Positions 1,613-21,634 of a stretch of DNA of 32,000 nucleotides are shown piece after piece. Position 1 is the first letter of the stretch; each line of letters starts with the position of its first letter. The notes under the pieces were generated by a model that did no database searches, was not told where the DNA came from, and saw nothing but the letters and a program-made list of their open reading frames with translations. A program made the position numbers and the translations under genes. This stretch comes from Candidatus Methanophagaceae archaeon (GTDB lineage Archaea > Halobacteriota > Syntropharchaeia > Alkanophagales > Methanospirareceae), in assembly GCA_003194425.1 (NCBI GenBank), contig PQXB01000001.1, positions 340,444-372,443 of the forward strand, given 5' to 3'.

Positions 1613-2425
1613 ATGAGAAGAGTAAAGACGAGGACAAAACCAAAACCAAAACAAAAAAACAAAACCGCAGTCTGCGTCTGCTCTGGCGGGGTGGATTCCA
1701 CGGTCGCTGCGACTGTCGCCGCACGCGAAGGCTACGAGTTGCGCCTCTTCCACGCGTCCTACGGGCAGCGGGCGGAACGGCAGGAGAAAGAAGCGGTCGT
1801 GAAAATCGCCGGTTACTTTGGTGTGGGTGCGAAGGATTTAAAATTCGCGGAAATTCCGTTCTTGAAGGAACTCGGTGGCTCGGCACTGACAGACCTCGAG
1901 AGAGAAGTCCCAGTTGGAGAAGAGGTGAAGTTAAATGAAAACGGAGAAACAGGGGGAGAAACAAGAGAAGCAGGAGAAGCAGGAGAAGCAGGAGAAGCAG
2001 GAGAAGCAGGAGAAGCAGGGACAAAGACGCCGTCTACTTGGGTGCCGTGCAGGAACTTGGTTCTTTTGGCAACTGCTTGTGCCTACGCAGAGGTAGTCTC
2101 CGCAGACGCCTTGTTCGTGGGCTTCAACGCCGAAGAGGCAAGGTCGTACCCTGACAACGAGAAGGAGTTCGTTGTGCGGTTCAACGCGGTCTTGGAGAAG
2201 GCGGTGGCTTCTTTTTCGCAGCCGCCGACGGTTAGGGCGCCGCTGGCGGATTTGTTGAAGTCGGGTGTGGTAAAGAAGGGGGTAGAAGTTGGGGCGCCGT
2301 TGCACCTGACTTACTCCTGCTACTTAGGTGGCAAGAAGCACTGCGGGGTCTGCGAGTCCTGCCTTCGTCGGCGGAGAGGGTTTAGAGAAGCTGGTGTAGA
2401 GGACCCGACCGAGTACATTTTTTAG
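1613..2425 (+). CDS. queC: 7-cyano-7-deazaguanine synthase QueC
   Basis: PP-loop motif CVCSGGVDST near the N-terminus. The C-terminal Cys cluster (SCYLGGKKHCGVCESCLRRRRGF) is typical of QueC. ATG start with GAGGGG upstream. The protein carries an in-frame GEA repeat insert and a 17-aa K/T/P-rich N-terminal extension encoded by A/C-rich DNA. Confidence 0.9.
   Translation: MRRVKTRTKPKPKQKNKTAVCVCSGGVDSTVAATVAAREGYELRLFHASYGQRAERQEKEAVVKIAGYFGVGAKDLKFAEIPFLKELGGSALTDLEREVPVGEEVKLNENGETGGETREAGEAGEAGEAGEAGEAGTKTPSTWVPCRNLVLLATACAYAEVVSADALFVGFNAEEARSYPDNEKEFVVRFNAVLEKAVASFSQPPTVRAPLADLLKSGVVKKGVEVGAPLHLTYSCYLGGKKHCGVCESCLRRRRGFREAGVEDPTEYIF
1965..2018. repeat. 9-nt unit GAGAAGCAG x6, in frame inside queC (encodes EAGEAGEAG...)
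   Basis: Read directly; perfect copies at 1965-2018. Confidence 0.95.
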
Positions 2426-4017
2426 TTCAACTCAATCGTCGCAGCGTTTGGGTCCAACCCCTTCCACCTCACCTTAAACCCGAGCTCTGCCAACACCTCG
2501 TCAGGATTTGGCAACCCCAACCCCTCAATTACCCGCCTCGCCTCGGCGTACAACCTTACACCGGCAAGTCTGCCCTCCACCTCATTTAACAACCCCCTTT
2601 TTACCACCACCTCTTTAAACACAACAAAATCCGAGTAACCCGGAGCCTTCAAGCACGCTCTCACCGCCTCCTTACCCACCTTGTACCGCGTAGCAAGATC
2701 CTTGATAAAAATTATTCCGCCCTCGAGACAAATCTCCACACTACTCAAACTTTCCACCTGCCTCCGCGTCTCCTCTGTCTCAATCTTCGCCAAATGCCAA
2801 AGCACCTCGCCGAGAGGGACTTTTCGGGTGTAAAGAATCGTAGGGTGTCCAAGATCCAAATCGAAGTTCAGGAGGTTGAAGCACGCGAGGTTGCTGTTAA
2901 GAGCGACCAAAATGTTAAACGGCAGAGCCCGCAGCTTCGAGAACTTCTTTCTCAGGTAGTCCGCCGTCCAGAACCCCACGATTTCAAAATAAACCTCCAC
3001 TCCCTCCGCCTCTTTGTGCTTGAACTTAAAGTCGGGCAGGAAGACGCCCTTGCCCGTGAAAATCGCATTCGGCTCTCTCACCAACTCCCAACTCTCCGCC
3101 GCCGGCGTTGCTAAAAATTCGTTGTAAAATTTCTCTTCGACGCGGCTGTCAAACACGGGCTGCTCCTTCTTTGTCTCACTCTCTCGGCTCGTCGTCAGCA
3201 AACCCTTGCTCCTGCTGCTGTCCAGGAGAAAATGGTAAATTTGGGGAGTCCTGTCTCGCCTGACGACAACCTCAGCGTCCAGCGCCCACTCGTCGCTGCG
3301 GACTACCGCGGGAAGCAATTTCGCCAACGCCGTGCCGTACCGCTCGCTCAACTTCAGCAGCGACGACGCACCCTCAATCCTTATTTTTATTTTTCCACCA
3401 CTCCCCCCACCTTTCGGCGAGTACATCAAGCCGTTCTTCTTAACCGCCCTGAAAATCTCTTTAAATCCGCTCTTGAACTCGAGTGTCATTCCCGTAGACT
3501 TGAACAACAGCGTTTGAGCAAGCGAAAGGTTGTAGGACCGCAACAACTCCTCAGGCGTTAAACTTGAAGCCGTAAAATCCGCCAAAACAACCTCCGATTC
3601 CAGGTCCGACCACAGAGACCGCTCCAAATCCGCAGCCGAGACGCCTAACCTCGCCGCAACATTTTCAACCACCTCCTCCCTTGCTTCTCGGCTCGTGACT
3701 CTTCCGCTGCTCGCACTGCTCGCCGCCTCGAAGACCGCCCGCCTCGCCAGTACAGGTTCAACCGCAAACTCGGACTTAAAGACGCACCGCCGCTCCAGAA
3801 GCGTTCTCAAGCCCCGGACGAGTTTGAAGTTCAAGCCCTGCTCCTGCTCAAACTCCGCAAATATTTCGTCGATTTCGCTCCTCTTTCTGCCCGCGAAATT
3901 TTTATAAACCGCTCCCACCTCCGCAGCCAACTCCAAACGCTCCGCGTCCAACTTTGCGAAGACTGGATAAATTCGGTCCTTCTTCGTCCTCGTGACTAGC
4001 AGGTCAGCCGGCAACAT
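2422..4017 (-). CDS. bax1: Bax1 (DUF790) nuclease, the XPB-associated endonuclease
   Basis: Lies immediately downstream of, and overlapping, the XPB gene, which is the canonical archaeal xpb-bax1 arrangement. The N-terminus MLPADLLVTRTKKDRIYPVF and the C-terminal block VEVYFEIVGFWTADYLRKKFSKL match DUF790 as I recall it. The ORF track extends to 4053 through a TTG codon (MRGDAKTKTKTK). I prefer the ATG at 4017, which overlaps the xpb stop by 14 nt. Confidence 0.8.
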   Translation of the reverse strand: MLPADLLVTRTKKDRIYPVFAKLDAERLELAAEVGAVYKNFAGRKRSEIDEIFAEFEQEQGLNFKLVRGLRTLLERRCVFKSEFAVEPVLARRAVFEAASSASSGRVTSREAREEVVENVAARLGVSAADLERSLWSDLESEVVLADFTASSLTPEELLRSYNLSLAQTLLFKSTGMTLEFKSGFKEIFRAVKKNGLMYSPKGGGSGGKIKIRIEGASSLLKLSERYGTALAKLLPAVVRSDEWALDAEVVVRRDRTPQIYHFLLDSSRSKGLLTTSRESETKKEQPVFDSRVEEKFYNEFLATPAAESWELVREPNAIFTGKGVFLPDFKFKHKEAEGVEVYFEIVGFWTADYLRKKFSKLRALPFNILVALNSNLACFNLLNFDLDLGHPTILYTRKVPLGEVLWHLAKIETEETRRQVESLSSVEICLEGGIIFIKDLATRYKVGKEAVRACLKAPGYSDFVVFKEVVVKRGLLNEVEGRLAGVRLYAEARRVIEGLGLPNPDEVLAELGFKVRWKGLDPNAATIELN

Positions 4018-5452
4018 TTTTGTCTTGGTTTTTGTTTTTGCGTCTCCTCGCAATTCCCACCTCGGTCGTCCGTTTTGAGACGATTTCGTAGAGAACCGCC
4101 AGCTTCTCTTTTTTCCCCTTCCCCTTTCCCTTCCCTGTCTCCGTCTTCCGCAGAATCCGACCCAGTCGCTGCTTGTATTCCCGCCTGCTCCCGCTCCCGC
4201 TCAAAATAACGCCAACCGACGCCTCTGGAACATCAATTCCCTCCTCCAGAACCTTTGAAGTTACCACCACTTTGTACCTCCCGTCTCGGAACTTCTCCAA
4301 GATTTCCGCACGCTCCTCTTTCGGCGTGGTGTGCGTGATTGCGGGAACGAGGAACTCTCGGGAGATTGCGTAGACCAGAGAATTGTGCTCCGTGAAAATA
4401 ATTATTCGCTCGCCGAAGTGCCGGTCCAGAATTTCGGCAAGAGCCTTCAACTTAGTGCTCGAGTTCAAAGCGATTCTCCTCGCCCGGTTCCTCGCCAGCA
4501 GAGCCTCTCTCGCACCCGCGTCCCGACCGGCTCGCATAACGAGCAGCCTGAAATCCCGGGGCGACCGCAGGACAACGCCCTTCTGCTTCAAGAAATCTGT
4601 GAAAACGGCGTGGTATTTTTCGTACTCCTCCCTCTCTTCCCCCGTCAAATCGGTAACGACCCGCCTCGTCGTGTAGTTTGCCAAATGCCGCCCCGCCAGC
4701 TTTTCTACGCTGATTTCATAAACCTTCCCCCCCACCAGCCTCTCGAGGTCTGCGTGCAGTCCGTCCTCGCGCTCGTAAGTCGCGGTCAAGCCCAGCCTGT
4801 ACGGAGCGACAAACATCTCGGCGATGCTCGCAAACCCCGGCGAAGGCAGGTGGTGAACCTCGTCGAAGACCAAGAAGAGAAACCTGTTCCCCAGCTCCTC
4901 CGCCCTCAAGTACGCGGTCTCGTAGGTCGAGACTGTTAGTGGCTTCAAAATGTGCGCCTCGCCGCTGTAAGTCCCTACCTCAACTTCAGCTCCCTCTCCC
5001 CCTCCCTTTCCCCCTCCCTCTCCCCCTGTCCCCAACCGCCTCTCCAGTTCCCTCTTCCACTGCCGAACCAACTCCAAAGTCGGCACAACTACCAGCGTTG
5101 GAACATTCAGCACCGAAATCGCCTTTATTCCGACCACTGTCTTGCCCGCGCCGGTAGGCAGGACCAACGCACCTCGCCTCGTCTGCAGCCATTTTTTTAA
5201 TGCCTCCTCCTGGTAGTCGTGCAGCCTCAACCCCAACTCACAGCAGCTCAAATCCTGCATCGGCAGCAAGTCCAGAACCTTGTCCTCGTACTCGAGCCCC
5301 GAAAGTTTCAAGTAGCCCACCAAATCCTCGTAAAACATCGCGAGGCACCTGTAGCACCCCAACCGCTCGTCCCACGCAGTGTGCGGCAGTCTGAAATTGC
5401 TGGCTACTACTACCGTCCCCTTCGCAAAGCTCAAACTTATCATTCTCCTCAC
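4004..5452 (-). CDS. xpb: XPB/Rad25-type SF2 DNA helicase
   Basis: Walker A LPTGAGKT, motif II FDEVHHL, the XPB-specific RED motif (TYEREDG), and the C-terminal helicase block VTSKVLEEGIDVPEASVGVILSGSGSRREYKQRLGRILR. The track start at 5452 is GTG, with the first ATG at 5443. Low-complexity inserts are GTGGEGGGKGGGEGAEVEVG and KTETGKGKGKGKKEK. Confidence 0.88.
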   Translation of the reverse strand: MRRMISLSFAKGTVVVASNFRLPHTAWDERLGCYRCLAMFYEDLVGYLKLSGLEYEDKVLDLLPMQDLSCCELGLRLHDYQEEALKKWLQTRRGALVLPTGAGKTVVGIKAISVLNVPTLVVVPTLELVRQWKRELERRLGTGGEGGGKGGGEGAEVEVGTYSGEAHILKPLTVSTYETAYLRAEELGNRFLFLVFDEVHHLPSPGFASIAEMFVAPYRLGLTATYEREDGLHADLERLVGGKVYEISVEKLAGRHLANYTTRRVVTDLTGEEREEYEKYHAVFTDFLKQKGVVLRSPRDFRLLVMRAGRDAGAREALLARNRARRIALNSSTKLKALAEILDRHFGERIIIFTEHNSLVYAISREFLVPAITHTTPKEERAEILEKFRDGRYKVVVTSKVLEEGIDVPEASVGVILSGSGSRREYKQRLGRILRKTETGKGKGKGKKEKLAVLYEIVSKRTTEVGIARRRKNKNQDKNVAG

Positions 5453-7431: not shown

Positions 7432-8061
7432 TCAAGTGGTAGTTTTCACTAAAGCCTCCACCGCAAAAAGAACTTTTTCAGCGACTTTGTGGGGTTCTTC
7501 TGCCCCGTTTAGCCGCACCAAACTCAAAGGAAGGTCGTTAAAAAGTCGCTCGTAAACCCCCTCAATTTTCTCGAGGAACTCGGTGTTGCTCTCAAATCTG
7601 TCGTTCGCTCGGTCGTTTGTCCTGTTCTGCTCCCCTTTCCTGCGGTACGCGGTCTCAACTGGCACTTCAAGATAAAAGACGAGGCTGGGTGTAGTCAGAT
7701 TTAACAATTTTACCACCTCCTTCGCCGCCTCGTAGTCAAACCCGCTCGCAGACTGGTAGGCAAGGGTAGACAAGAAATACCTGTCCAAAATAACGACCCA
7801 GCCGTCTTGAAGCAGTCCCCTCACCCGCCCTTGGTCTTTAACAATGTCCAGCAAGAAGAGCAGGAACTGCTCCTCCGCGCTCAACTCAACCTCCCTTTCG
7901 AGAAACGCTTTTATTCGCTTTCCGTACTCAGACCCGTAGTCAGGGTACGAAAAAACAGCGACCTTGAACCCCCGCTGCAGTAACGCGTCCTTGAGAAGTC
8001 TTGACTGCGTTCGTTTTCCCGAGCCGTCAACACCCTCAAAATTAATCAACACTCCCTTCAT
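7432..8061 (-). CDS. tmk: thymidylate kinase
   Basis: P-loop FEGVDGSGKRTQ, a DRY motif (LDRYFLSTLAYQ), and length and layout typical of Tmk. Confidence 0.9.
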   Translation of the reverse strand: MKGVLINFEGVDGSGKRTQSRLLKDALLQRGFKVAVFSYPDYGSEYGKRIKAFLEREVELSAEEQFLLFLLDIVKDQGRVRGLLQDGWVVILDRYFLSTLAYQSASGFDYEAAKEVVKLLNLTTPSLVFYLEVPVETAYRRKGEQNRTNDRANDRFESNTEFLEKIEGVYERLFNDLPLSLVRLNGAEEPHKVAEKVLFAVEALVKTTT

Positions 8062-8100
8062 TTTACCTCTTCTATTTTACCTCTTCTATTTTACCTCTCC
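8061..8100. repeat. 14-nt unit TTTTACCTCTTCTA x2.9 spanning the tmk start codon, the 29-nt spacer and the cbiZ-fusion stop codon
   Basis: Read directly. The minus strand reads GGAGAGGTAAAA TAGAAGAGGTAAAA TAGAAGAGGTAAAA TG. Each unit carries GAGGT plus TAA. Confidence 0.95.
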
Positions 8101-9434
8101 TGCCTAAGAGGAGGAGAAGAGGAGAGCAGAGCAGTCATGCAACCTGCGATTAGTCCGCCGACAGCGTCGTCCATAAAAACGCCCAGCCTGCTCAGAATCC
8201 CCGGCTTCCTCGTGTCGTAGTAGAAAAAATTAAAGAGTGCTTTCTTGCCGCCGATGTATTCTGCAATGTCAATTCCGATGAGTTCGTCAGCGACAATGCA
8301 GGCTGCGTCCTCGGCTCCCTCTTCCCCCGCCCGCCCTTTTCTCACTTCTTCCTCCTCGGAATGCAGTGCCGCCGCCAAGAGCAACGCCACATTCACATCC
8401 GAGCACTCCCTTTTTATCGCCGCCTCCAACCGCGCTTTTAACTCTTCTTTCCCGACCTCTTCCTCGCCTTCCGCAGCCACATAAAGTTCCAACCCCGCTG
8501 CGACCATTTCCGCCAAAAAAATCCCACGCTCCTCCAGCCGCGTAAGAATTGGTCTCTCCACGCTCAACCGGTTGTGCAGAAAAAGTGCCTCCTTCACTCC
8601 TTCTCGAACGACCTCGTAGACCGCTTTCCCTAACCTCGTCGCCTTACCTGCAAATCTCTCCTCTTCTTCTTTCTCATCTTCTTCTTTCTCATCTTCTTCT
8701 TTCTCATCTTCTTCTTTCTCATCTTCTTCTTTCTCATCTTCTTCTTTCTCATCTTCTTCTTTCTCATCTTCTTCTTTCTCATCTTCTTCTTTCCCCTCCT
8801 CTTCTCCCTCCGCCCCCTCGCCAGAACAGGCAGTGCAAGCCACGACTACCGAATCGGTTGCGTCGCCAGTAAATAAATCGCTGTTTTCATCTCGGACATT
8901 GAGGTCTGCGAAAGCGGCTGTCTTCGCTTCGGTCGCCACGATTAGCAGGTTCGCCATCGCAGACTGCGACAAGTTCTTTCTGACCAGCAGAATTATGTTT
9001 ACGGTTGAACTCGGTTCGGTCGGCTTTGAGATGCCCGCTGTGATAATTGCAGTTACTGGCTCTCGCTCTGCCTCCACGATTTTTGCGTTCTTCATCGGAA
9101 CCGCTGTCATCACTCCAACAACCTCTCTCTGCTTTTCTCTCTGCTTTTCTCTCTGCTTTTCTCTCTGCTCTTCTCTCTGCTTTTCTCTCTGCTCTTCTCT
9201 CTGCTCTTCTCTCTGCTCTAAACCCCACTCCTCAGCCAAACCCAACACCTCAGCCCGCTCCTCGAAAAAGGAATCGAAGACCTCAAACGCGTCTCCGCTA
9301 AAATCTCTGCTCACGCTCAAGTTTATTATCGTCTTTGCTTTGACGAAACCCCCGTTGTAGACCGCGGAGCTCAGCACCTTGAAATCGCCGTGCACGGCAA
9401 TGAATTCTTCCGACCGCTCTATTTCTATTTTCAT
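8091..9434 (-). CDS. cbiZ: adenosylcobinamide amidohydrolase CbiZ fused to a PgpA/CobZ-like (alpha-ribazole phosphatase-type) C-terminal domain
   Basis: N-terminal CbiZ blocks are FKVLSSAVYNGGF, TAVPMKNA, TAGISKP, STVNIILLV, NLLIVATEAKTAAFADL and TGDATDSVVVAC. The C-terminal domain ends in GVFMDDAVGGLIAGCMTALL, which resembles the PgpA/CobZ family motif. The track start at 9446 is TTG. I prefer the ATG at 9434 (MKIEIERSEEF). The gene has two large in-frame arrays. Confidence 0.8.
   Translation of the reverse strand: MKIEIERSEEFIAVHGDFKVLSSAVYNGGFVKAKTIINLSVSRDFSGDAFEVFDSFFEERAEVLGLAEEWGLEQREEQREEQREKQREEQREKQREKQREKQREVVGVMTAVPMKNAKIVEAEREPVTAIITAGISKPTEPSSTVNIILLVRKNLSQSAMANLLIVATEAKTAAFADLNVRDENSDLFTGDATDSVVVACTACSGEGAEGEEEGKEEDEKEEDEKEEDEKEEDEKEEDEKEEDEKEEDEKEEDEKEEEERFAGKATRLGKAVYEVVREGVKEALFLHNRLSVERPILTRLEERGIFLAEMVAAGLELYVAAEGEEEVGKEELKARLEAAIKRECSDVNVALLLAAALHSEEEEVRKGRAGEEGAEDAACIVADELIGIDIAEYIGGKKALFNFFYYDTRKPGILSRLGVFMDDAVGGLIAGCMTALLSSSPPLRQER
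8663..8797. repeat. 15-nt unit CTTCTTCTTTCTCAT x8 perfect (8663-8782) plus one degenerate copy; encodes (KEEDE)8 on the minus strand
   Basis: Read directly: 120 bp without a mismatch, located in the linker between the CbiZ and CobZ-like domains. Confidence 0.97.
9127..9218. repeat. 12-nt unit CTCTGCT(T/C)TTCT x7.7; encodes QREK/QREE repeats on the minus strand
   Basis: Read directly. The copies differ only at one T/C position. Confidence 0.95.
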
Positions 9435-9490: not shown

Positions 9491-10561
9491 ATGTATAAAA
9501 TGGAAAGGAGAGGTAGAGAAAAGAGAGGTGTAGCGAGTTTAGCAGTCGTAGTAGCCGTAGTGGCGGTTGCTGTCTCGGTCTCGGCGCTGTTTGCGGGCTG
9601 CGTAGAAGAGGCAGAAGAAACGACGACGCTCCGAATCGGCTACCAGCCAAGCACGCACCAAACTGCGGCGATGTTAGCAGCCGAGAAGGGCTGGTGGGGG
9701 GAGGACCTTGCGAGGTTTGGTGTGGGGAAGGTTGAGATGAAGGAGTTCCCGTCGGGCCCGCCGGAGATGCACGCAATGCTTGCGGGCGACCTTGACTTTG
9801 CTTATGTGGGGGTTGCACCGCCGATTGCTGCGATTTATGAGGGCTTGGACGCGAAGATTGTCGCGGGCGTGCAGACGCAGGGTTCTGCGATTGTAGTTCG
9901 CCCGGAGCTCGCTGCCGAGTACGAGGCGAAGGGACCGCAGGCTTTGAAGGGCAAGGCAATTGCGACTTTCCCTCCCGGCTCAATCCAACACACAATCCTC
10001 TCGAAATGGCTCTTAGAAAACGGTCTCGATCCGGAGGAGGATACAGATATAAAGGAAATGAAACCGGGCGACGCTGCCACCGCAATCGGAGTGGGGACAG
10101 TGGACGCGGTCTTCCTGCCCAGCCCGACGCCGACAATCATCGCTGCGGAGGGGAACGGCGTGGTCGTTGAGTGGTCGGGTTCGATGTGGCCGGACCACGC
10201 CTGCTGCTGTCTTGTCGCGAGCGGGGAAATGATTCGGGAGCACCCAGAGGTGGTTAAGCAAATAATAAGGACGCACATTCGTGCCACCGAGTACGAGATC
10301 GAGCACCCAGAAAAGGCGGCGGAGATTTACGCAAAACGACAGGGCGCGGACCCCACAACGATAAAGCAGTCCCTCGAGGCGACAGATATGCACTGGATTC
10401 ACGACCCGCATCTTGAGGTGAAGTCGGGACTCGAGTACGCGAGCGTGATTTACGACCTGAACAGGGAGAGGTACGAGGGGAAGGGAATTGAAGTGCTTGG
10501 AGAGGAGGAGATTTTTGACGCCAGTTTCTACGACGCGGTGACGGCGACAGAGGAGAAATGA
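9491..10561 (+). CDS. ABC transporter substrate-binding protein, NitT/TauT (NMT1/THI5-like) family, probable lipoprotein
   Basis: Signal peptide with a lipobox-like LFAGC. The blocks LRIGYQPSTHQTAAMLAAEKGWW and DFAYVGVAPPIAA are typical of NMT1/SsuA-like binding proteins. The stop overlaps the permease start (ATGA). Confidence 0.85.
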   Translation: MYKMERRGREKRGVASLAVVVAVVAVAVSVSALFAGCVEEAEETTTLRIGYQPSTHQTAAMLAAEKGWWGEDLARFGVGKVEMKEFPSGPPEMHAMLAGDLDFAYVGVAPPIAAIYEGLDAKIVAGVQTQGSAIVVRPELAAEYEAKGPQALKGKAIATFPPGSIQHTILSKWLLENGLDPEEDTDIKEMKPGDAATAIGVGTVDAVFLPSPTPTIIAAEGNGVVVEWSGSMWPDHACCCLVASGEMIREHPEVVKQIIRTHIRATEYEIEHPEKAAEIYAKRQGADPTTIKQSLEATDMHWIHDPHLEVKSGLEYASVIYDLNRERYEGKGIEVLGEEEIFDASFYDAVTATEEK

Positions 10562-12886: not shown

Positions 12887-12917
12887 CTCCGTTTCTTACG
12901 CAAAAATTACGAAAACT

Positions 12918-14374: not shown

Positions 14375-14778
14375 AAGGAGATACAAGAATTAGCGTAAGA
14401 CTATGCAGAAGCATAAAGATAACAGCAGTGCTGCTACTCGTCGTTGCAGCCTTTTCGTCTCCGATAGCAAGCGCAGCTATTCCCTGCGGCTGTGGTGAGA
14501 TTTGCACGAACGAAACAGGCTGGTGGCACGCAGGCGGGGACTTTAACGCAGCCACGAACCCGCTCAGTGCAGCGGTGGGTACTGCGAACGCGGGCGACAC
14601 GATTTGCGTCAAAGACGGTACTTACCGCGAAAGCGTTCAGATTAGCAAAAACCACCTGACCCTCCGCTCTGAAAACGGGACTGCAAACTGCATCGTCAAT
14701 GCCTCAGGCGTACACGGATTTTGCGTTGCGCCCGAAAGAAATTTCTGTAAAATGCTTGACGAACAAAGTAGGAAGTGA
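14371..14778 (+). CDS. N-terminal fragment of a right-handed beta-helix (NosD/pectate-lyase-like) cell-surface protein; probably truncated, possible pseudogene
   Basis: Signal peptide plus CGCGEICTNETGWWHAGGDFNAATNPLSAAVGTANAGDTICVKDGTYRESVQISKNHLTLRSENG. This resembles the conserved N-terminal start of much longer archaeal beta-helix surface proteins as I recall them. Here the ORF stops about 110 residues after the signal peptide. ATGA overlap with the upstream gene. Confidence 0.5.
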   Translation: MKGDTRISVRLCRSIKITAVLLLVVAAFSSPIASAAIPCGCGEICTNETGWWHAGGDFNAATNPLSAAVGTANAGDTICVKDGTYRESVQISKNHLTLRSENGTANCIVNASGVHGFCVAPERNFCKMLDEQSRK

Positions 14779-14783
14779 AAGAG

Positions 14784-15695
14784 ATGAAAATAGAGAGACT
14801 AAAGAGGGAGAAGATATTTTTGTTTTTCATTTTTTTAGGGTTTTTTCTCGTCGCGTTCGTCTGCGTTACAGTTGGAAACCTGTTTTACGAGCAGGCAGCG
14901 GACTTTTCAGGGCTGCTTGCGGCTGCGAAGGATCCTGCGGTTTTAAGTGCGTTTTGGGTGAGCTTCTCGGCTGCGATTTGTGCCACGCTGGTTGCGTTCT
15001 TCTTTGGAGTTCCGCTGGCGTATTTCCTTGCGAGGAAGGATTTTAGGGGTAAGAGCGTTGTAGAAAGTGTCGTGGACGTTCCGCTGGTAATTCCGCACAT
15101 CGTCGCGGGGATTGCGTTGTACAGCGTTTTTATGCGCTCTGGCGTGCTGGGTGCGCCGCTTGAGCGAGTGGGAATTGCGTTTACGGACGCCTTTCCGGGA
15201 ATTGTGGTTGCGATGCTTTTCGTTAGTCTTCCGTTTTTGGTGGACGCGGCACGCGAGGGGTTCAAGGAGGTTGACCCGCGGTTAGAGAATGTTGCAAGGT
15301 CGTTGGGGGCGTCGCAGTGGCGAACGTTCTCAAAAATAACCTTCCCGCTCGCCTCTTCCTCGATTTTCAGCGGTGCGGTTCTCTGCTGGGCGCGGGGAAT
15401 AAGCGAGTTCGCTGCAGTGATGATTCTTGCCTCTTACCCGCGTTCTGCGTCAATTCTGATCGGCGACCGTTTCACCTCTTACGGCTTAAGCGGCAGCGGG
15501 CTGGTAGAAGCGGCAGGAGGAGCGGCAGGAGGAGCGGCAGGAGGAGCGGCGGCGGGTGCGCGTCCGATTTCGGTTCTGCTGATTTCAGTTTGTCTGGCGA
15601 TTTTTGTGCTACTGCGGGGGCTGCGGGGGCTGCGAGGGCTGCGGGGGCTGCGAGGGCTGCGGGGGCTGCGAGGGCGGGGAAGAAGGAGAGGGTAG
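14784..15695 (+). CDS. ABC transporter permease, ModB/WtpB/CysT (molybdate/tungstate/sulfate) type, with no adjacent binding protein or ATPase
   Basis: The blocks VVDVPLVIPHIVAGIAL, PGIVVAMLFVSLPFLV, DPRLENVARSLGASQWRTFSKITFPL and ARGISEFAAVMILASYP are typical of ModB/WtpB permeases. The track start at 14775 is GTG, with the ATG at 14784. The C-terminal region carries (AAGG)3 and (GLR)7 repeat expansions. Confidence 0.85.
   Translation: MKIERLKREKIFLFFIFLGFFLVAFVCVTVGNLFYEQAADFSGLLAAAKDPAVLSAFWVSFSAAICATLVAFFFGVPLAYFLARKDFRGKSVVESVVDVPLVIPHIVAGIALYSVFMRSGVLGAPLERVGIAFTDAFPGIVVAMLFVSLPFLVDAAREGFKEVDPRLENVARSLGASQWRTFSKITFPLASSSIFSGAVLCWARGISEFAAVMILASYPRSASILIGDRFTSYGLSGSGLVEAAGGAAGGAAGGAAAGARPISVLLISVCLAIFVLLRGLRGLRGLRGLRGLRGLRGRGRRRG
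15510..15545. repeat. 12-nt unit GCGGCAGGAGGA x3 in frame (AAGG repeats) in the last loop of the permease
   Basis: Read directly; perfect copies. Confidence 0.95.
15612..15674. repeat. 9-nt unit CTGCG(G/A)GGG x7 in frame (GLR repeats) forming the permease C-terminal tail
   Basis: Read directly. Confidence 0.95.
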
Positions 15696-16469: not shown

Positions 16470-17990
16470 TCAGACTTTTTTAAAGTTTGTTGAAAAACCT
16501 TTTCCTAAAAGTTTTTTATCTAGTGCTGCTACGAACTTCTCTTCAGACCCCGCGGGAACGGTCGCTCCGGCTGCGACTGGGTGTCCGCCGCCAAAGCCGC
16601 CTACTTCTCTCGACGCCTTTTCCAGCGCTTCTGCGAGGTCTAGTCCGCCACTCTTGAAGAGCCTGCTGCTGCACCTCGCGGAGATTTTCGTCTCTGCGCT
16701 CTTGCTCGTCGTGTTCAGCGCGACTACAGGCTTCTTGGTGCGTAAATATTCTGCCACGATTCCTGCTAAAACGCCCGTTACTCCGCTTTCCTGCACAAAA
16801 AAATAGAAAATATTTGGCAGTTCTTTTACGACGTCCGCTCCTCCGCTCCCTCCTTCTTCTTTGTTTATTCGGTTCAGTTCAGAGACGAGTTTGTTCTGAA
16901 ACTTCGTGTGCAGCGAGGTCGCCTCTTCTACCGCCGACTCCTCGCGCAGGCACAGCCCAATTCCAACGCCCGCCTTTCCAAACCGACCGCAAGCGTCCAC
17001 GAGCCGCATAAAATCCGTCCCGTCCCGCACTACCTCAAAATTGAAAACATAAACTGCTCCAACCAATTCCTGCGAGAGCGCCGACAAAGACGACAGAGCC
17101 GCAGTCAGTCGCTCCACCTCTTCAGCCGTTAAATCGCTCAATTTCTTCTCGCCCTCAACCCCTCCCGCGCCGACCTTCTTCAAGAACGCGTCCACCCTTT
17201 CCGGCTTGCCCGCGAGCGGAAGGTAGGGGTCAGTAGCGAAGAGAAGCAGGTCGCGAATTTTTCCGCCGCCGAGTCTCAACCCCCGCTTAACAGAAACAAC
17301 GCCTTCTCTCACCGCCTCGTCCAAAATCTCCTTGTTTAGCCCGCTACTCAAGTCCTGCTTGTCCCCCAACGAGCCTGCTACTGCGAGCCCCGCGAGGTCG
17401 CAGTTCCCCCGCTCGTTTTCCGAGAGGCACCTTGCTACGAGGTAAGAGAGACCTGCGGCGCAGACCTCGCCGCCTTCTCTTCCTTCCGCGGAGAGGCAGG
17501 GATTTACGAGGACCAACGATGAAGAGGGAGGAGGAGAAGAAGAGGAAGAAGAGGAAGAAGAGGAAGAAGAGGAAGAAGAGGGAGGAGAAGAAGAAGAGGA
17601 AGAAGAGGGAGGAGAAGAAGAGGGGGGGGGAGGAAAGTTTGAAGAAAAGGTAGAGGGTGGGGTGTGGTGGTCGAGAATTACGACATCCGTCTCTTTGAGG
17701 TGCTCCAAAATCAAATCCAACTGCCCTGTTCCCATATCGCAGAAAATAACAAGCTCCTCCTCGCCCTCGCGCAACTCCTGAACAAAATCCCGCTCCAACT
17801 TGCTTACAATCGTGGCGTGGAACTGAATTCCCGCTCGAAGCAGGGCGTTGCAGAGAATGCCCGCGGAAGTAATTCCGTCCGCGTCGTAATGCGAAACCAC
17901 TCTTGCGTAGTTGTGCTTTTTTATCTTTTCCGCCGCTTTCTGCACTGCCTTTTGGACTGCCTCTTGCATAATTTTCAAAAAGAATTTCAT
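16470..17990 (-). CDS. DHH/DHHA1-family RecJ-like phosphoesterase/exonuclease (archaeal RecJ/GAN-type)
   Basis: Motifs VVSHYDADGITSAG, FCDMG, VVILDHHTP, and C-terminal GGGHPVAAGA (DHHA1). Contains a 39-residue Ser/Pro insert encoded by a pure polypyrimidine (coding strand) tract. Confidence 0.85.
   Translation of the reverse strand: MKFFLKIMQEAVQKAVQKAAEKIKKHNYARVVSHYDADGITSAGILCNALLRAGIQFHATIVSKLERDFVQELREGEEELVIFCDMGTGQLDLILEHLKETDVVILDHHTPPSTFSSNFPPPPSSSPPSSSSSSSPPSSSSSSSSSSSSSSSPPPSSSLVLVNPCLSAEGREGGEVCAAGLSYLVARCLSENERGNCDLAGLAVAGSLGDKQDLSSGLNKEILDEAVREGVVSVKRGLRLGGGKIRDLLLFATDPYLPLAGKPERVDAFLKKVGAGGVEGEKKLSDLTAEEVERLTAALSSLSALSQELVGAVYVFNFEVVRDGTDFMRLVDACGRFGKAGVGIGLCLREESAVEEATSLHTKFQNKLVSELNRINKEEGGSGGADVVKELPNIFYFFVQESGVTGVLAGIVAEYLRTKKPVVALNTTSKSAETKISARCSSRLFKSGGLDLAEALEKASREVGGFGGGHPVAAGATVPAGSEEKFVAALDKKLLGKGFSTNFKKV
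17521..17637. repeat. 117-nt uninterrupted polypurine (+ strand) / polypyrimidine tract built from GAAGAG/GAGGAA-type units
   Basis: Read directly: there is no C or T between 17521 and 17637. It encodes PPPPSSSPPSSSSSSSPPSSSSSSSSSSSSSSSPPPSSS on the minus strand. Confidence 0.95.
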
Positions 17991-18023: not shown

Positions 18024-18143
18024 GGGCGTGTGGCCTAGCTAGGAAATGGCGGCAGCCTCCTAACAAACAGTTTAGGCAAAAAGGGAAAGATTGTTAAAAA
18101 GGGAGAGAGCTGCAAATCACGGGTTCAAATCCCGTCACGCCCG
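18024..18143 (+). tRNA. tRNA-Arg (anticodon CCU) with a 45-nt intron at the canonical 37/38 position (intron 18063-18107)
   Basis: Folded by hand. Acceptor GGGCGTG/CACGCCC plus discriminator G. D arm GCC...GGC with GG in the loop. Anticodon stem GCAGC/GCTGC and loop CTCCTA|A. T arm ACGGG-TTCAAAT-CCCGT. CTCC (18057-18060) can pair with GGAG (18102-18105), flanked by 3-nt bulges TAA and AGA, which is a bulge-helix-bulge-like splice motif. Confidence 0.85.
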
Positions 18144-18515
18144 TCTCCTTACCCGTCCCCTTACCCTTTCTCGTTCCCGTTCCACCGCCCAATTCTCAAT
18201 CGTCTCGCGGTCTACTACAATAACATCCCGTATTGAATTCACCGCCTCAAAGGGTATAAAAATGCAATCTCCCTCCTTCCGAAACCCGCTTGTCTCAAGT
18301 TTGGCAGTAGGCTTAACAACGAGCTCCGTCAATATTCCCGTCCCCGCGTCGGCTACGATATTTTGTAAAACGCCCATTTCGCTGCCCTCTGAATCCATAA
18401 TTTTTTTATGTTTTAACTTCTGCGCCGATATTTTCTCCATTCCCCGCTCCCTCCTTCCCCTCCTTTGCTTTCTCCTTTTCTCTATCTTCTCTGCCGCCCT
18501 ATAAAAGTTTTTCAT
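18135..18515 (-). CDS. PRC-barrel domain protein
   Basis: The core MGVLQNIVADAGTGILTELVVKP...CIFIPFEAVNSIRDVIVVD fits the PRC-barrel pattern. The track ORF (to 18656) overlaps nadK and is too long. Candidate starts are ATG 18515 (1 nt after the nadK stop) or ATG 18440 (preceded by GGAGGG at 8-nt spacing). The 3' end overlaps tRNA-Arg by 9 nt on the opposite strand. Confidence 0.6.
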   Translation of the reverse strand: MKNFYRAAEKIEKRRKQRRGRRERGMEKISAQKLKHKKIMDSEGSEMGVLQNIVADAGTGILTELVVKPTAKLETSGFRKEGDCIFIPFEAVNSIRDVIVVDRETIENWAVERERERVRGRVRRRA

Positions 18516-18516: not shown

Positions 18517-19464
18517 TCACTTCTCGTCCTCAATCCGCAGTTTGTCGTGCAGCCGCAAGAAATGCTTGTCCCGAATTTTGACAAAAAAAGCAGGCTCGCC
18601 CCTCGTAATGCTAATTCGGTCTTCTCGCCCGATTTTCCTGTAAAACTGCCCGTCAACTACTAACTCCGCCTCTTTCGCCCCCAAGAGCTCTAAATTTATC
18701 GTTGTGTCAATGTTAACGACGGTGGGTCGTGCGGAGAGTTTGAAAGGTGCGATTGGCACGATTATTGCGGCGTTCAGTTTAGGATCTACGATCGGCCCGC
18801 CCGCGGACATCGCGTACGCAGTGCTACCAGTCGGGGTCGCAAAGACAACGCCGTCCGCCCGTAACTGCTCTAACTCGTCGCCGTCCACCGAGATAGAAAA
18901 ATGCAGCATCTTCCCAGGCTTTGAAGTTACTACCACCGCCTCGTTCATCGCGTACGGCACCTTCTCCCCCTTTCCTGCTCCTACCCTTCCCCCTCCTGCT
19001 CCTGCCCCTGCTCCTGCTCCTGCCCCCGCTGCCGACTCTGCCACCGAGACAGAAAGTCGCTCCCGCCGCTCCACTTCGAACCCGCGGTCCAACAGACCCG
19101 AAAGTGTAGAAACAGCGTCTTCTGGCTGCACCGCGGCTAAAAACCCGAGAGCGCCCATATTTACGCCCAAGACCGGCGTGCTGCCCTTCAAATAATGAAG
19201 CGTCCTCAAAATCGTACCGTCGCCGCCAACGCAGACCAAAAAATCCACCGACATTTCGCCGATTTTCGTGCCTTGCCCTTGCTTCTTCTCTTGCTTCTTA
19301 AGTCCTGGTGCCCTACCCCTGCGTGCCGTCTCCTCGTCCAGCACCACCTCAACTCGCTCTCCTCCCACACGCTCAACACACTCAATCAGCCGGCTTAAGA
19401 CCAAATCATCCCCGGGCTTACCACGACAGACCATTCCAATCCGCTTCGGCAGAATTAAAACCAT
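18517..19464 (-). CDS. nadK: NAD kinase
   Basis: The GGDGT motif (VCVGGDGTILRT), NEAVV, and DGVVFATPTGSTAYAMSAGGPIV are typical of NadK/PpnK. Contains an in-frame (AG)n insert. Confidence 0.9.
   Translation of the reverse strand: MVLILPKRIGMVCRGKPGDDLVLSRLIECVERVGGERVEVVLDEETARRGRAPGLKKQEKKQGQGTKIGEMSVDFLVCVGGDGTILRTLHYLKGSTPVLGVNMGALGFLAAVQPEDAVSTLSGLLDRGFEVERRERLSVSVAESAAGAGAGAGAGAGGGRVGAGKGEKVPYAMNEAVVVTSKPGKMLHFSISVDGDELEQLRADGVVFATPTGSTAYAMSAGGPIVDPKLNAAIIVPIAPFKLSARPTVVNIDTTINLELLGAKEAELVVDGQFYRKIGREDRISITRGEPAFFVKIRDKHFLRLHDKLRIEDEK
18995..19030. repeat. 6-nt unit CCTGC(T/C) x6 in frame in nadK (encodes AGAGAGAGAGAG on the minus strand)
   Basis: Read directly. Confidence 0.9.
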
Positions 19465-19894: not shown

Positions 19895-19904
19895 TTTCCT
19901 TCCC

Positions 19905-19950
19905 CTTGTAATTTCTAAATTCTAAACCTTCTAATTTCTAAATTCTAAAC
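19905..19950. repeat. 23-nt unit CTT(G/C)TAATTTCTAAATTCTAAAC x2 in the nac / tRNA-Val divergent spacer
   Basis: Read directly (19905-19927, 19928-19950; one mismatch). Followed by TATA-like AATATTTAAAG (19951-19961). Confidence 0.9.
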
Positions 19951-19998: not shown

Positions 19999-20071
19999 GG
20001 GCTCGTGGTCTAGTTGGAATGACATCGCCTTTACGAGGCGAAGGTCATGCGTTCGAATCGCATCGAGCCCA
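19999..20071 (+). tRNA. tRNA-Val (anticodon UAC)
   Basis: Folded by hand. Acceptor GGGCTCG/CGAGCCC plus discriminator A. D arm GTC-TAGTTGGAAT-GAC. Anticodon stem TCGCC/GGCGA with loop TTTACGA. T arm ATGCG-TTCGAAT-CGCAT. Followed by TTTTT. Confidence 0.92.
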
Positions 20072-20086: not shown

Positions 20087-21634
20087 ATGAGAAGGGTAAT
20101 GACCGTCGGGGGTTCGGACTGCAGTGGCGGGGCGGGTGTTCAAGCCGACATAAAAACATTCTCCGCACTCGGCGTTCTCGGAACCTCGGTGCTCACCGCC
20201 GTCACCGCACAAAACTCGCACGGCGTGCAGGCGAAGCGAGAAGTGCCGGTCGAACTCGTGGAGGCACAATTTGAAGCCATTTTGAGCGAGAAGAGCGACA
20301 AGGGCTTTGCCGCAACGGTGGACTACGCGAAGACCGGAATGCTCTCCTCCTCTGCAGTGGTAGAAGCGGTGGCGAGAGGGCTTAAAGGCAAAACCAAGAG
20401 TAAGCGGTCTAAAATCCCGTTCGTGCTCGACCCTGTCTTGAGGGCGGGTTCAGCGGGTTCAGCGGGTTCAGCGGGTTCAGCGGGTTTAGGAGGGTCAGGT
20501 GGAGGCGGGGTTCTTTTGGAAGACGAGGCTTTAGAGACGCTTGTTTCGGTTCTTCTGCCGATTTGCGAGGTTGTAACGCCGAATGTTCCCGAAGCCTGCG
20601 TTCTTTCGGGCTTGGAGATAAAAAACAAAGAGGACGCAAAAGAGGCGGCACTAGAAATACACAAAATGGGCGCTCCTGCAGTAATTCTAAAAGGCGGGCA
20701 TTTAGAGCAGGAAACCGCAGCCGGGCGAGCGACAGACATAATCTACGGCGAGGAGTTCGGTTTCGAAGAAATGAGTTTGAGCCTGCTAAAAACTGGGAAA
20801 AGGAGGGTAGTGCACGGTGCGGGCTGCTCCTTCTCCGCTGCTCTTGCTGCCGAACTTGCGAAGGGCAGGGGCTTGCGAGACGCTGCTCGGTCTGCGAAGA
20901 GGTTCGTGCATTCTGCCATTTCTGTGGGCGTTCGTGTTGGGTCTTTTGTAGTGCTGGATCAGACCTGCGGGCTGCGGCGAGACGCGGACAGGTATTTCGT
21001 GCTGCAGAATGTAAAAGAGGCAGTCAGGCGGCTGAAGAACACGCCGAACTTTAAGAATTTTATTCCTGAGGTTGGAACGAACATTGGAATGGCTGTGGCG
21101 GGTGCGGAGAGCGAGTCCGAAGTCGCAGCGGTGGACGGCAGGCTAACTCCTACGAAAAGAGACGGAATTCGGGGCGGCGTAGGGGCAGGGGTAGGAGCAG
21201 GAGGAGTAGGGGAAGGAGGTGTGGAGTTTGGCGTGAGCGGGCACGTTGCGAGGCTGATTTTGGCGGGGCTGAAGCACGACGAGGAGAAGAGAAGCGCGAT
21301 TAACATAAAATACTCTGCGGAAATCGTAGAGGCGTGCAAAGACCTGGGAATGCGTGTCTTCACATTTGAGAGAGCGAAAGAGCCGACTGCGGCAGAGGGG
21401 AAGACGATGAACTGGGCGGTAAGAGAAGCGAGTAGAGAAGCGAGTAGAGAAGCGAGTAGAGAAGCGAGCAGAGAAGCGAGCAGAGAAGCAGGCGAGGAGG
21501 AGTTCTCACCAGATGTGATTTACGACCTCGGGGCTGTGGGTAAGGAGCCGATGGTTAGGATTTTTGGCAGGACCGCGGTAGAGGTGGCGGAGAAGGTGAA
21601 GAGGCTCGTTGAAAAGTTTTATCAAAAATTTTAA
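20087..21634 (+). CDS. thiDN: bifunctional ThiD (hydroxymethylpyrimidine/phosphomethylpyrimidine kinase) / ThiN (thiamine-phosphate synthase) protein
   Basis: ThiD N-terminal blocks are VMTVGGSDCSGGAGVQADIKTFSALGV, VDYAKTGML, VLDPV, VVTPN, VILKGGH and HGAGCSFSAALAAELAKG. The ThiN-like C-terminal domain includes IPEVGTNIGMAV and VDGRL. Three in-frame repeat inserts are present. Confidence 0.88.
   Translation: MRRVMTVGGSDCSGGAGVQADIKTFSALGVLGTSVLTAVTAQNSHGVQAKREVPVELVEAQFEAILSEKSDKGFAATVDYAKTGMLSSSAVVEAVARGLKGKTKSKRSKIPFVLDPVLRAGSAGSAGSAGSAGLGGSGGGGVLLEDEALETLVSVLLPICEVVTPNVPEACVLSGLEIKNKEDAKEAALEIHKMGAPAVILKGGHLEQETAAGRATDIIYGEEFGFEEMSLSLLKTGKRRVVHGAGCSFSAALAAELAKGRGLRDAARSAKRFVHSAISVGVRVGSFVVLDQTCGLRRDADRYFVLQNVKEAVRRLKNTPNFKNFIPEVGTNIGMAVAGAESESEVAAVDGRLTPTKRDGIRGGVGAGVGAGGVGEGGVEFGVSGHVARLILAGLKHDEEKRSAINIKYSAEIVEACKDLGMRVFTFERAKEPTAAEGKTMNWAVREASREASREASREASREASREAGEEEFSPDVIYDLGAVGKEPMVRIFGRTAVEVAEKVKRLVEKFYQKF
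20444..20488. repeat. 9-nt unit GCGGGTTCA x4 perfect plus one variant, in frame in thiDN (SAG repeats)
   Basis: Read directly. Confidence 0.95.
21422..21493. repeat. 12-nt unit AGAGAAGCGAG(T/C) x5 plus a partial copy, in frame in thiDN (REAS repeats)
   Basis: Read directly. Confidence 0.95.

Follow-up and report, generated by a model that had tools for sequence, protein, structure and literature searches.

Polymorphic in-frame tandem arrays in housekeeping genes of an ANME-1a archaeon and their probable origin in frequent, selection-filtered tandem duplication

Introduction

The locus described here raises the question of why many conserved housekeeping genes of one archaeon carry nearly perfect tandem arrays inside their reading frames, and whether these arrays tell something about the encoded enzymes or about the way in which the DNA of this organism is copied and maintained. 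A first-pass annotation had listed such arrays and ascribed them to a high rate of slippage or tandem duplication filtered by selection for reading frame.

Materials and methods

The window, i.e. the whole 32-kb stretch analysed, originates from the ANME-1 G37 metagenome-assembled genome (GTDB ANME1a sp003194425; enrichment genome GCA_003194425.1). It belongs to the chromosome of the ANME-1a species that this enrichment genome represents, in the following called G37 species. Arrays were detected over the window with Tandem Repeats Finder (TRF) and gene identities were assigned via Pfam; the comparison of reading frames included TRF arrays with a score of at least 40. The same-species set comprised 17 contigs from other metagenomes, of which 11 are 99.0-99.4% and 6 are 93.3-98.9% identical to the window. 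From the G37 species ~56 kb of the ~1.4-Mb genome were sampled. For the longest arrays (up to 149 nt), which were read from short-read assemblies, copy numbers may be imprecise.

Results

Inventory of arrays

TRF recovered all previously listed arrays with offsets of at most a few bases, and additional ones were found at the queC N-terminus, in thiDN (21187-21219), in hemC, and in the genes for an S-layer-like protein, a secreted TP-rich protein and a PRC-barrel protein. The Pfam matches agreed with the gene identities (QueC, XPB, CbiZ+PgpA, ABC_tran, AAA_17 for AdkA, BPD_transp_1, DHH/DHHA1, NAD kinase, ThiD+ThiN). The window contains 25 strong arrays (score at least 50) compared with a mean of 0.11 in block shuffles, which rules out chance as an explanation. 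Nine perfect arrays of at least 30 nt and at least 3 units in the window stand against none in 374 kb of outgroup loci. The coding arrays are the following, with lengths of same-species alleles where these were read:

1635-1666, plus strand: queC, N-terminal K/P-coding array, 6 nt x5.2, weak (TRF score 41); +6 nt allele in L074, KPKP lengths differ in P0026 and P0027
1955-2019, plus strand: queC, (GEA)n array, 9 nt x7.2 (TRF), perfect at 1965-2019 (x6.1); 0-5 extra units across same-species clusters
4113-4135, minus strand: xpb, C-terminal (GK)n array, 6 nt x3.8, imperfect (TRF); length constant in both same-species loci that cover it
4990-5027, minus strand: xpb, G/E/K array, 12 nt x3.2 (TRF), imperfect; allele 24 nt shorter in L074
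8657-8805, minus strand: cbiZ-pgpA, linker (KEEDE)n array, 15 nt x9.9, perfect at 8662-8793 (x8.8); 7 length alleles from 78 to 183 nt, each step a multiple of 15
9124-9217, minus strand: cbiZ, (E/KQRE)n array within the CbiZ domain, 12 nt x7.8 (TRF); alleles 72, 84, 96 and 120 nt
11696-11731, plus strand: ABC ATPase, (KVKG)n array, 12 nt x3 (TRF), imperfect; six alleles from 81 to 135 nt, protein lengths 270-282 aa in the 90% cluster
12315-12340, plus strand: adkA, (RCGE)n array in a variable loop, 12 nt x2.2 (TRF); 3 copies in L074. This loop holds unrelated repeat-like inserts in the ANME-1c loci L028 and L036
15509-15550, plus strand: modB/wtpB-like permease, (GGAA)n array in the loop preceding the last TM helix, 12 nt x3.5; alleles 57 and 69 nt
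15612-15675, plus strand: modB-like permease, (LRG)n array in the C-terminal tail, 9 nt x7.1, 18-nt higher-order unit; alleles 54, 72, 81 and 90 nt
17521-17621, minus strand: recJ-like gene (archaeal RecJ/GAN family), S/P array, 9 nt x11.2 or 27 nt x3.7; plus strand all purine (GAAGAGGAA), coding strand 0% purine; alleles 102 to 168 nt
18974-19030, minus strand: nadK, (AG)n array between the N- and C-terminal domains (TRF 18993-19023, 6 nt x5.2); alleles 102 to 141 nt
20444-20486, plus strand: thiDN, (AGS)n array within ThiD, 9 nt x4.8, 100% matches (TRF); alleles 63 to 90 nt
21187-21219, plus strand: thiDN, G/V/A/E array, 15 nt x2.2, imperfect (TRF); +9 nt allele in 3 loci
21422-21489, plus strand: thiDN, (REAS)n array within ThiN, 12 nt x5.7 (TRF); alleles 45, 69, 81 and 93 nt
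25269-25314, minus strand: S-layer-like protein, (GEEQP)n array near the C-terminus (TRF); alleles 84, 87 and 93 nt
28355-28452, plus strand: secreted OB-fold-like protein, T/P/S array, 36 nt x2.7; alleles 123, 147 and 159 nt

Intergenic DNA of the window carries arrays as well:

667-755, intergenic: 19/44 nt units (TRF); 44-nt shorter allele in L074
1080-1154, intergenic, upstream of gene 1184: 20 nt x2 and 14 nt x2.9 (TRF), unit including TTTAAA; 20-nt shorter allele in L074
7310-7329, intergenic: 10 nt x2 (TRF); single copy in 4 same-species loci
8056-8098, intergenic, tmk/cbiZ: 14 nt x3.1; 14-nt shorter allele in 5 loci
11319-11390, intergenic: 19 nt x2 and 13 nt x3.7 (TRF); no length change among 11 loci
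12918-12997, intergenic, upstream of a LamG-domain gene: 24 nt x3.4 with GGAGGT in each unit; alleles 24, 34 and 47 nt shorter
19904-19950, intergenic, NAC gene/tRNA-Val: 23 nt x2 (TRF); alleles 50, 57 and 80 nt

Reading frame and copy number

The period is divisible by 3 in 23 of the 25 arrays lying wholly within coding sequences, compared with 4 of the 14 intergenic or gene-edge arrays (Fisher p = 7.9e-5), so the contrast in unit length noticed in the first-pass annotation holds. Unique indels among the same-species contigs behave alike, since 77 of 86 inside coding sequences but only 4 of 14 in intergenic DNA are multiples of 3, a pattern that fits the proposed filtering of mutations by selection for frame.

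Copy number differs in 17 of 19 coding arrays among the 17 contigs, which bears out the earlier claim of recent expansion; all these differences are multiples of 3, which the length differences of intergenic arrays are not. Over the first ten contigs of the comparison (98.7-99.4% identical), indels occur about once per kb and nearly all of them are whole-unit changes; contig L064, for example, differs from the window by 205 substitutions and 23 indels. Transitions between one and two copies make up 19 of the 38 clear tandem events, hence arrays are also born (or finally lost) within the species and not merely resized.

Insertion status, position and composition

The arrays had been suspected to be lineage-specific insertions at loops, linkers or termini, and both expectations were confirmed by comparisons with orthologues, Pfam matches, structure alignments and a model of QueC. 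The (KVKG)n array is missing from 11 orthologues of the ABC ATPase in other species, the AdkA array from the orthologues in other ANME-1 species, and the (GEA)n array from 13 more distant aligned QueC homologues (ANME-1, Alkanophagales and others). Among solved structures, residues 87 and 88 of 3bl5 flank the gap into which the QueC array falls, and 7l07 and 7r8y have a gap opposite the ThiD (AGS)n array. Residues 107 and 112 of 1suw enclose the place where NadK residues 142-170 find no match, and residues 114-158 of the RecJ-like protein are likewise extra relative to 7bhi, between its residues 120 and 127. The (GGAA)n array of the permease lies past residue 242, the last one aligned to 3d31. 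The (KEEDE)n array is situated between the Pfam matches of CbiZ (21-207) and PgpA (376-441), i.e. in an interdomain linker, while the CbiZ match takes 187 residues over 161 model positions and the ThiN match 198 residues over 164 positions. AF2 models the QueC array as an unstructured loop (residues 116-136, pLDDT below 50) within a fold whose mean pLDDT is 83; the (GEA)n array is thus a predicted disordered loop insertion.

Coding arrays favour the residues E, G, S, A, R and P, and they show a strong purine bias (71% vs 58%). This bias could come from a sequence preference of the underlying mechanism rather than from selection on residues.

Spread in the genome and among relatives

Array density amounts to 8.8 per 10 kb in the G37 species, compared with 0.78 in other ANME-1 loci (499 kb) and 1.04 in outgroups (374 kb). 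A second locus, the MutL neighbourhood, lies ~108 accession numbers from the window with both on one 1.19-Mb contig; its array density per 10 kb amounts to 10.9 in L091 and 16 in L089. In the flanks beyond the window, arrays are borne by genes encoding, among others, a CLC channel, a CCA-adding enzyme and a 659-aa protein. The earlier suggestion of a lineage-wide property was therefore right in that the arrays are a genome property and not gene-specific, but the lineage is narrow: it includes the G37 species and, separately, two ANME-1c loci with 7.0 arrays per 10 kb, whereas most ANME-1 loci stay near 0.8. Base composition is insufficient as an explanation, because the 56% G+C contigs L087 and L088 of another organism have just 0-0.9 arrays per 10 kb.

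Discussion

In our assessment, these arrays are probably best explained by a regime, particular to the species, in which short tandem duplications and slippage are frequent and selection filters the products. Segments of ~6-44 nt would be tandemly duplicated at an unusually high rate in genic and intergenic DNA alike, and the arrays, once made, would gain or lose whole units. Selection would then purge the variants that are not tolerated, such that arrays within genes pass three filters: only units of 3n length would be retained, which keep the reading frame; only surface loops, interdomain linkers and tails would accept them; and the encoded residues would mostly be disorder-promoting ones that are small or charged (E, G, S, A, R, P, K). 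The outcome would be variable-number tandem repeats through which housekeeping enzymes that are otherwise conserved acquire additional disordered segments, with the arrays themselves assumed to be neutral. They may originate from replication slippage or from misaligned flap re-annealing during DNA synthesis; according to work cited in PMC9879509, slippage on repeat templates occurs in vitro with archaeal PolB and PolD. The G37 species possesses a full-length MutL, which rules out loss of MutL as the cause and leaves the simplest version of a repair loss without support. The root cause is presumably some other change in the replication or repair machinery of the species.

Alternatively, the arrays could be selected functional additions, in which disordered segments tune enzyme solubility, interactions or regulation, as proposed for Borg repeats, and their spread would be due to adaptation instead of a raised mutation rate. 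The strong bias to disorder-promoting residues, the restriction to tolerated positions and the independent repeat-like inserts in the AdkA loop of ANME-1c loci agree with this idea, and the Borg study argues for a function of amino-acid repeats on similar grounds (PMC9879509). However, the biases in composition and position are also expected from purifying selection alone, and arrays are found across many cytoplasmic housekeeping enzymes that are unrelated to one another and, to an equal extent, between genes. Their copy number differs freely among same-species contigs with no favoured length, and sister species manage without them. Hence, we regard adaptation as an unlikely driver.

Still less probable is a dedicated repeat-making activity acting at preferred seed sequences, for example a polymerase, nuclease or integrase from the cell itself or from a resident mobile element, which is one possibility raised for Borgs. 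The repeat density of the window is indeed Borg-like (0.77% vs a mean of 0.62%; PMC9879509), the trait is restricted to few lineages, and coding arrays are strongly biased to purine runs on one strand; but intergenic arrays lack a comparable bias (A+G 56.5%), the unit sequences are unrelated, no candidate gene was found within the ~56 kb of sampled DNA, and ordinary slippage accounts for the gain and loss of whole units.

Errors of short-read assembly or binning deserve hardly any credence. Assembly errors are a known consequence of tandem repeats (PMC6868369; PMC9879509), one G37-species contig (L070) has an N gap within an array, and Logan contigs break within an array, both stopping at 12950 inside the one at 12918-12997. 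Nevertheless, the same arrays recur at identical sites in at least 17 independent MEGAHIT, SPAdes and Logan contigs from different samples, which rules out an assembly artefact as their source. Two Logan assemblies, whose reads presumably stem from the source culture, match window positions 10933-12950 exactly, most arrays are shorter than the reads, and the length differences are all whole-unit and in frame. Ancient low-complexity inserts from the ANME-1 ancestor are refuted, for although such regions can stay conserved in prokaryotes according to PMC6821194, the orthologues of other ANME-1 species lack these arrays, and the arrays are near-perfect at the nucleotide level and polymorphic within the species.

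Collectively, our data favour frequent tandem duplication under selection for tolerated variants in the G37 species. To our knowledge, a comparable repeat density has so far been described only for the giant Borg elements of other methane-oxidising archaea. The tandem repeats of Borgs are the closest known case to the arrays of the G37 species, and by the Borg criterion the repeats make up 0.77% of the DNA in the window compared with a Borg mean of 0.62% (PMC9879509 Table 1).

Source genome and contigs compared

The window belongs to a 1.19-Mb contig (1,187,124 bp) in the genome of ANME-1 G37, to which its AdkA (PXF51168.1), ABC ATPase and LeuA were assigned by exact sequence match. It is rich in core genes of the normal chromosomal kind, namely queC, bax1-xpb, dapB, tmk, a cbiZ-pgpA fusion, an ABC transporter and adkA, as well as a modB-like permease gene, atpK, a recJ-like gene, nadK, NAC, thiDN, a radical-SAM gene, leuA/cimA and hemC. 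A tRNA-Val gene (anticodon TAC; 19999-20071, plus strand) stands between the NAC gene and thiDN, with a 23-nt intergenic array just upstream. According to Laso-Perez et al. (2023, PMC9894754), the G37 genome (GCA_003194425.1; Krukenberg et al. 2018) comprises 5 scaffolds and 1.4 Mb and forms one species with ANME-1 ex4572-4 and GCA_026133975.1 (11719B_bin4), which is the ANME-1a species ANME1a sp003194425 of GTDB. GCA_026133975.1 and GCA_002254785.1 are genomes of this species.

Syntenic, near-identical contigs were taken from GCA_026133975.1 and from Guaymas and Pescadero metagenomes, and the comparison set comprised 17 same-species contigs from other samples. Over their aligned part, eleven same-species contigs share 99.0-99.4% identity with the window; others are lower, with 98.7-98.9% for L064, L067, L070 and L075 and 93.3-94.9% for L076, L077 and L079, the divergence of the last three being found mainly at the region of the FlaI-like gene. 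Two contigs of Logan assemblies match positions 10933-12950 exactly and both stop within the 24-nt intergenic array; we infer that the runs with this exact match derive from the G37 culture, the reads of which are probably SRR6664617 and SRR6664622.

Tandem arrays in the window

The tandem arrays in the window are real. All arrays listed in the first-pass annotation were recovered by Tandem Repeats Finder (TRF) at the positions assigned to them, together with several others, and at a TRF score of at least 50 the window holds 25 arrays compared to 0.11 expected from block shuffles. Codon shuffles in 60-codon blocks, which retain local low complexity, gave 8 arrays versus the 25 observed; this control is conservative, hence block shuffles and real outgroup DNA were used instead. 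By the criterion applied to the Borgs, extrachromosomal elements of Methanoperedens, i.e. perfect arrays of at least 50 nt with at least three units, three arrays making up 0.77% of the window were counted, and none were found in 825 kb of other loci.

The proposed contrast between coding and intergenic unit lengths was confirmed. At a TRF score of at least 40, the period is divisible by 3 in 23 of 25 arrays situated wholly inside coding sequences versus 4 of 14 intergenic or gene-edge arrays (Fisher p = 7.9e-5). Moreover, approximately one third of the arrays fall into the approximately 12% of the window that is non-coding, as is expected from a uniform mutational process that is thinned by selection in genes.

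The arrays are not of the CRISPR type, because the units in the window adjoin directly, head to tail and without unique spacers in the TRF output. The one true CRISPR array encountered, which has a period of 66-68 nt, is that of L034 (3897-5594), a locus of Ca. Alkanophaga liquidiphilum, where it raised the tandem-repeat count. One further short array (18140-18166) corresponds to the C-terminal ERERERVRGRVRRR tail of a PRC-barrel protein, the gene of which (18135-18515, minus strand) is called with 101 or 126 aa in relatives; a 137-aa ORF opposite to it (18091-18504, plus strand) is probably spurious.

Copy-number variation within the species

When the same-species contigs were compared by anchoring on unique flanks, with copy numbers taken from short-read assemblies, 17 of the 19 coding arrays differed in length, and all differences were multiples of 3.

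Length range of selected coding arrays among same-species contigs
cbiZ linker: 78-183 nt, in steps of 15
ABC ATPase array: 81-135 nt
recJ-like array: 102-168 nt
nadK array: 102-141 nt
thiDN (REAS)n array: 45-93 nt

The alleles of cbiZ, modB and thiDN differ by whole repeat units, the modB alleles stepping by 9 or 18 nt and those of thiDN by 9 or 12 nt. The intergenic arrays vary by 10, 14, 20, 23 or 44 nt. A catalogue of all indels contained 100 unique events, with multiples of 3 among 77 of 86 events in coding sequences and 4 of 14 outside. Among the ten contigs that were compared first, with identities of 98.7-99.4%, there is approximately 1 indel per kb; L064, for example, differs from the window by 205 substitutions and 23 indels. 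Approximately half of the clear tandem events (19/38) are transitions between one and two copies, which indicates that new duplications are frequent and that the variation is not just due to the resizing of old arrays. Only three of these 1-to-2-copy duplications were usable for an inspection of microhomology.

Other differences among the same-species contigs were also recorded. A NosD/beta-helix gene is present as a 135-aa remnant in the window (14371-14778) and in most same-species contigs, and is full length (597 aa) in L064 (12102-13895), L068 and L069; the difference of a 1386-nt segment points to a presence/absence polymorphism in the species. The FlaI/T2SSE-like ATPase (28549-31182) carries a K/E-rich N-terminal extension that is strongly variable in sequence and length among subpopulations, with an 877-aa ORF in the window versus 749-906 aa in the gene calls of relatives. 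Many of the indels here are other than simple tandem events, and L076, L077 and L079 are only 93-95% identical to the window. The LamG/DUF2341 secreted protein (13010-14374) ranges from 397 to 461 aa, and its gene shows a difference of 22 nt near the start codon and differences of 2-4 nt near the stop, hence the gene boundaries in the window may differ from those in relatives. Upstream of this LamG-domain gene, GGAGGT occurs in every 24-nt unit of the array at 12918-12997, and TTTAAA is found in every 20-nt unit at 1080-1119, upstream of gene 1184. Judged from these regulatory-looking motifs, changes in the copy number of intergenic units may alter expression.

The variation resembles that of VNTRs or minisatellites of bacteria and eukaryotes, which arise by slippage or unequal recombination, in that units have at least 6 nt and are gained or lost as a whole, close relatives are highly polymorphic, and coding arrays are in frame. 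Bacterial coding VNTRs are usually found in surface, adhesin or stress genes, a few per genome, whereas here a housekeeping region has arrays in approximately 40% of its genes. Contingency loci of host-adapted bacteria, i.e. hypermutable simple sequence repeats that result from slippage, are similar in that intergenic arrays near promoters could in principle change expression; however, they have units of 1-7 nt and switch genes on and off by frame shift or promoter spacing, and an identity with such phase-variable loci is rejected by the restriction of coding-array length differences to multiples of 3.

Insertion sites in the proteins

The arrays represent lineage-specific insertions, as had been proposed from the sequence, since orthologues lack them and solved homologues are gapped at the array sites. 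The ABC ATPase array is absent in 11 orthologues of other species. Likewise, the QueC array is absent in 13 more distant QueC homologues that were aligned, and same-species clusters have 0-5 extra units. This array corresponds to an alignment gap between residues 87 and 88 of 3bl5, and in the AlphaFold model of QueC, the one protein modelled (mean pLDDT 83), it forms a loop without secondary structure and with pLDDT below 50. Alignment gaps were also found for the ThiD array in 7l07, for the NadK array between both domains of 1suw, and for the RecJ-like array between residues 120 and 127 of 7bhi. Both ModB arrays come after the end of the alignment with 3d31; the first precedes the final transmembrane helix and the second belongs to the C-terminal tail. 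The (KEEDE)n array is flanked by the domain matches to CbiZ and to PgpA; a solved CbiZ homologue was not detectable by sequence.

The array of AdkA sits in a loop that is variable across archaea. In two loci of ANME-1c, L028 (10090-10129) and L036 (approximately 10060-10130), the same loop holds unrelated repeat-like inserts, e.g. ASASSPASASASAG in AOM70-1. Comparison of these sequences suggests that the AdkA loop is a recurrent tolerated site.

The residues E, G, S, A, R and P are enriched in the arrays. Purines make up 71% of the coding strand in coding arrays versus 58% in all coding sequences, and both bases contribute (A 32% and G 39% versus means of 26% and 32%), hence the enrichment concerns purines and not specifically A. 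The recJ-like array is an exception, in which the template strand carries the purines and S and P are encoded. Intergenic arrays contain 45% A on the plus strand.

Distribution in the genome and among lineages

The first-pass annotation regarded the arrays as a lineage-wide property. This view holds for the spread within the genome, which was found in the flanks and at a second locus, but not for its breadth, because only few lineages are affected. Outside the window, arrays were found in several genes of the flanks, among them those for a CLC channel and the CCA-adding enzyme. The second locus is the neighbourhood of the MutL protein PXF51276.1, which is encoded on the same contig approximately 108 accession numbers from the AdkA of the window. 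Here, L091 from the same species (tetranucleotide correlation with the window 0.97) contains 15 arrays in 13.8 kb, and L089 contains 9 arrays in 5.5 kb; the genes concerned include those for an aminoacyl-tRNA synthetase (Pfam tRNA-synt_1b), a PhoU-like protein and MutL.

Pooled over the 55.7 kb sampled, the G37 species has 8.8 arrays per 10 kb, versus 0.78 in the loci of other ANME-1, Alkanophaga and Syntrophoarchaeum (499 kb). Two ANME-1c loci (Ca. Methanoxibalbensis ujae, AOM70-1) reach 7.0 per 10 kb, and the outgroups 1.04 per 10 kb (374 kb).

A search for a further locus of the G37 species with PriS of FWG147 as query gave matches from other species, L081 and L082 belonging to CR_Bin_179, and none among the 4 loci returned by one metagenome scan was of the G37 species. 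L087 was likewise discarded as a locus of this species (56% G+C, tetranucleotide correlation with the window only 0.49). A subset of ANME-1 PriS proteins (418-434 aa; P0165, P0166, P0173, P0184 and others) has a zinc-ribbon insert of the CxxC...CxxC type, which the 390-402 aa forms lack; the longer variants contain this insert and not repeats.

MutL and the possible cause

Weak repair through loss of MutL is ruled out as the cause. The G37 species encodes on the contig of the window itself a full-length MutL (PXF51276.1, 628 aa) with all four Pfam domains, MutL being the mismatch-repair component checked. Besides, bacterial-type mismatch repair is not known to act on loops of the size of these units. 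GC content is not the cause either, because the GC-rich loci L087 and L088 of another organism are almost array-free. Thermophily is not sufficient, since FWG147, for which a growth optimum of 69.5 C is predicted (G37: 68.7 C; PMC9894754), is without arrays in 18 kb.

P0344 is the MutL of the G37 species, and P0337 (L088) and P0368 (L090) belong to other species. In the G37 species (L089, 1279-3165; L091, 10001-11908) the protein has 628-635 aa and is longer than that of other ANME-1 (approximately 583 aa) by the repeat-like linker inserts RQREKE..., GGTGGRAGTGTG and EGEVEVEVE. Two same-species contigs have one of these inserts in versions that are one EV unit apart. A bacterial-type MutL (L081, 3960-5711) is widespread in ANME-1, with more than 100 clusters at 63-96% identity followed by an Alkanophagales-type at approximately 54%, and adjoins priS and a GINS gene in some species.

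Collectively, our data agree with frequent short tandem duplication and slippage under selection, and the explanation initially offered, slippage filtered for reading frame, is supported as far as it could be tested; the cause is inferred. The process would start with frequent short tandem duplication and slippage of units, and the resulting arrays would pass a selection filter for reading frame, position and residue type. In this regard, the work of Tishkoff and colleagues from 1997 is said to describe yeast rad27 (FEN1) mutants as mutators with tandem duplications of a few to approximately 100 bp, unlike the signature of mismatch-repair defects. The similar signature of short tandem duplications may give a lead on the cause and makes Okazaki-fragment processing and polymerase slippage the first candidates. 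According to work cited in PMC9879509, archaeal PolB and PolD slip when they copy repeat templates.

Significance and comparison with Borg repeats

A Borg-like density of repeats on the cellular chromosome of another methane-oxidising archaeal group provides a second system for studying the cause, and repeat-rich and repeat-poor ANME-1 species offer a ready comparison that could point to the responsible gene. For protein evolution, the arrays are fast-changing disordered inserts that are tolerated in conserved enzymes. On the practical side, they disrupt short-read assemblies and divide same-species protein clusters by length, as with the ABC ATPase and MutL, whose 90% clusters contain several lengths, and they offer strain-typing markers for an uncultured organism known only from enrichment culture. 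An earlier description of tandem repeats or of a link to mismatch repair in ANME-1 was not found in the literature searched.

The closest described case are the tandem repeats and amino-acid tandem repeats (aaTRs) of Borgs (Schoelmerich et al. 2023, PMC9879509). That study gives perfect arrays (at least 50 nt, at least three units) as approximately 0.3-1% of Borg DNA, with a mean of 0.62% (Table 1) that is close to the share in our window, and describes them as virtually absent from Methanoperedens host genomes (at most 0.01%). In both systems the arrays are perfect or near-perfect, each has an essentially unique unit sequence, and homologues elsewhere lack them. Genic units are divisible by 3 in Borgs and intergenic units in only 14-38% (PMC9879509), similar to the 4 of 14 found here, and copy number varies within and between close Borg populations; among our same-species contigs, it varies in 17 of 19 coding arrays. 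Furthermore, the repeats of both systems produce disordered segments with a high content of E, K, P, T and S, which are often found at protein ends or domain borders.

The differences concern location and composition. Here, the arrays reside on a cellular chromosome of another order, ANME-1 and not Methanoperedens, are mostly shorter, and have G+A-rich coding units compared to the A-rich ones of Borgs. They affect mainly cytoplasmic housekeeping enzymes (QueC, ThiDN, NadK, AdkA, CbiZ, XPB and the RecJ-like protein, with MutL and the tRNA-synt_1b protein from the second locus, a small sample), whereas Borg aaTRs occur chiefly in extracellular or membrane proteins. Whether the machinery of the Borg or of its host makes the Borg repeats is left open in PMC9879509. 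It appears rather unlikely that the process by which Borgs actively form repeats is also at work on the chromosomes of the G37 species and, separately, of ANME-1c. If it were, Borg-style repeat formation would be a trait of the archaeal machinery for replication or repair that can be switched on in particular lineages and not a peculiarity of Borgs, and it would represent a general route by which core enzymes acquire disordered segments.
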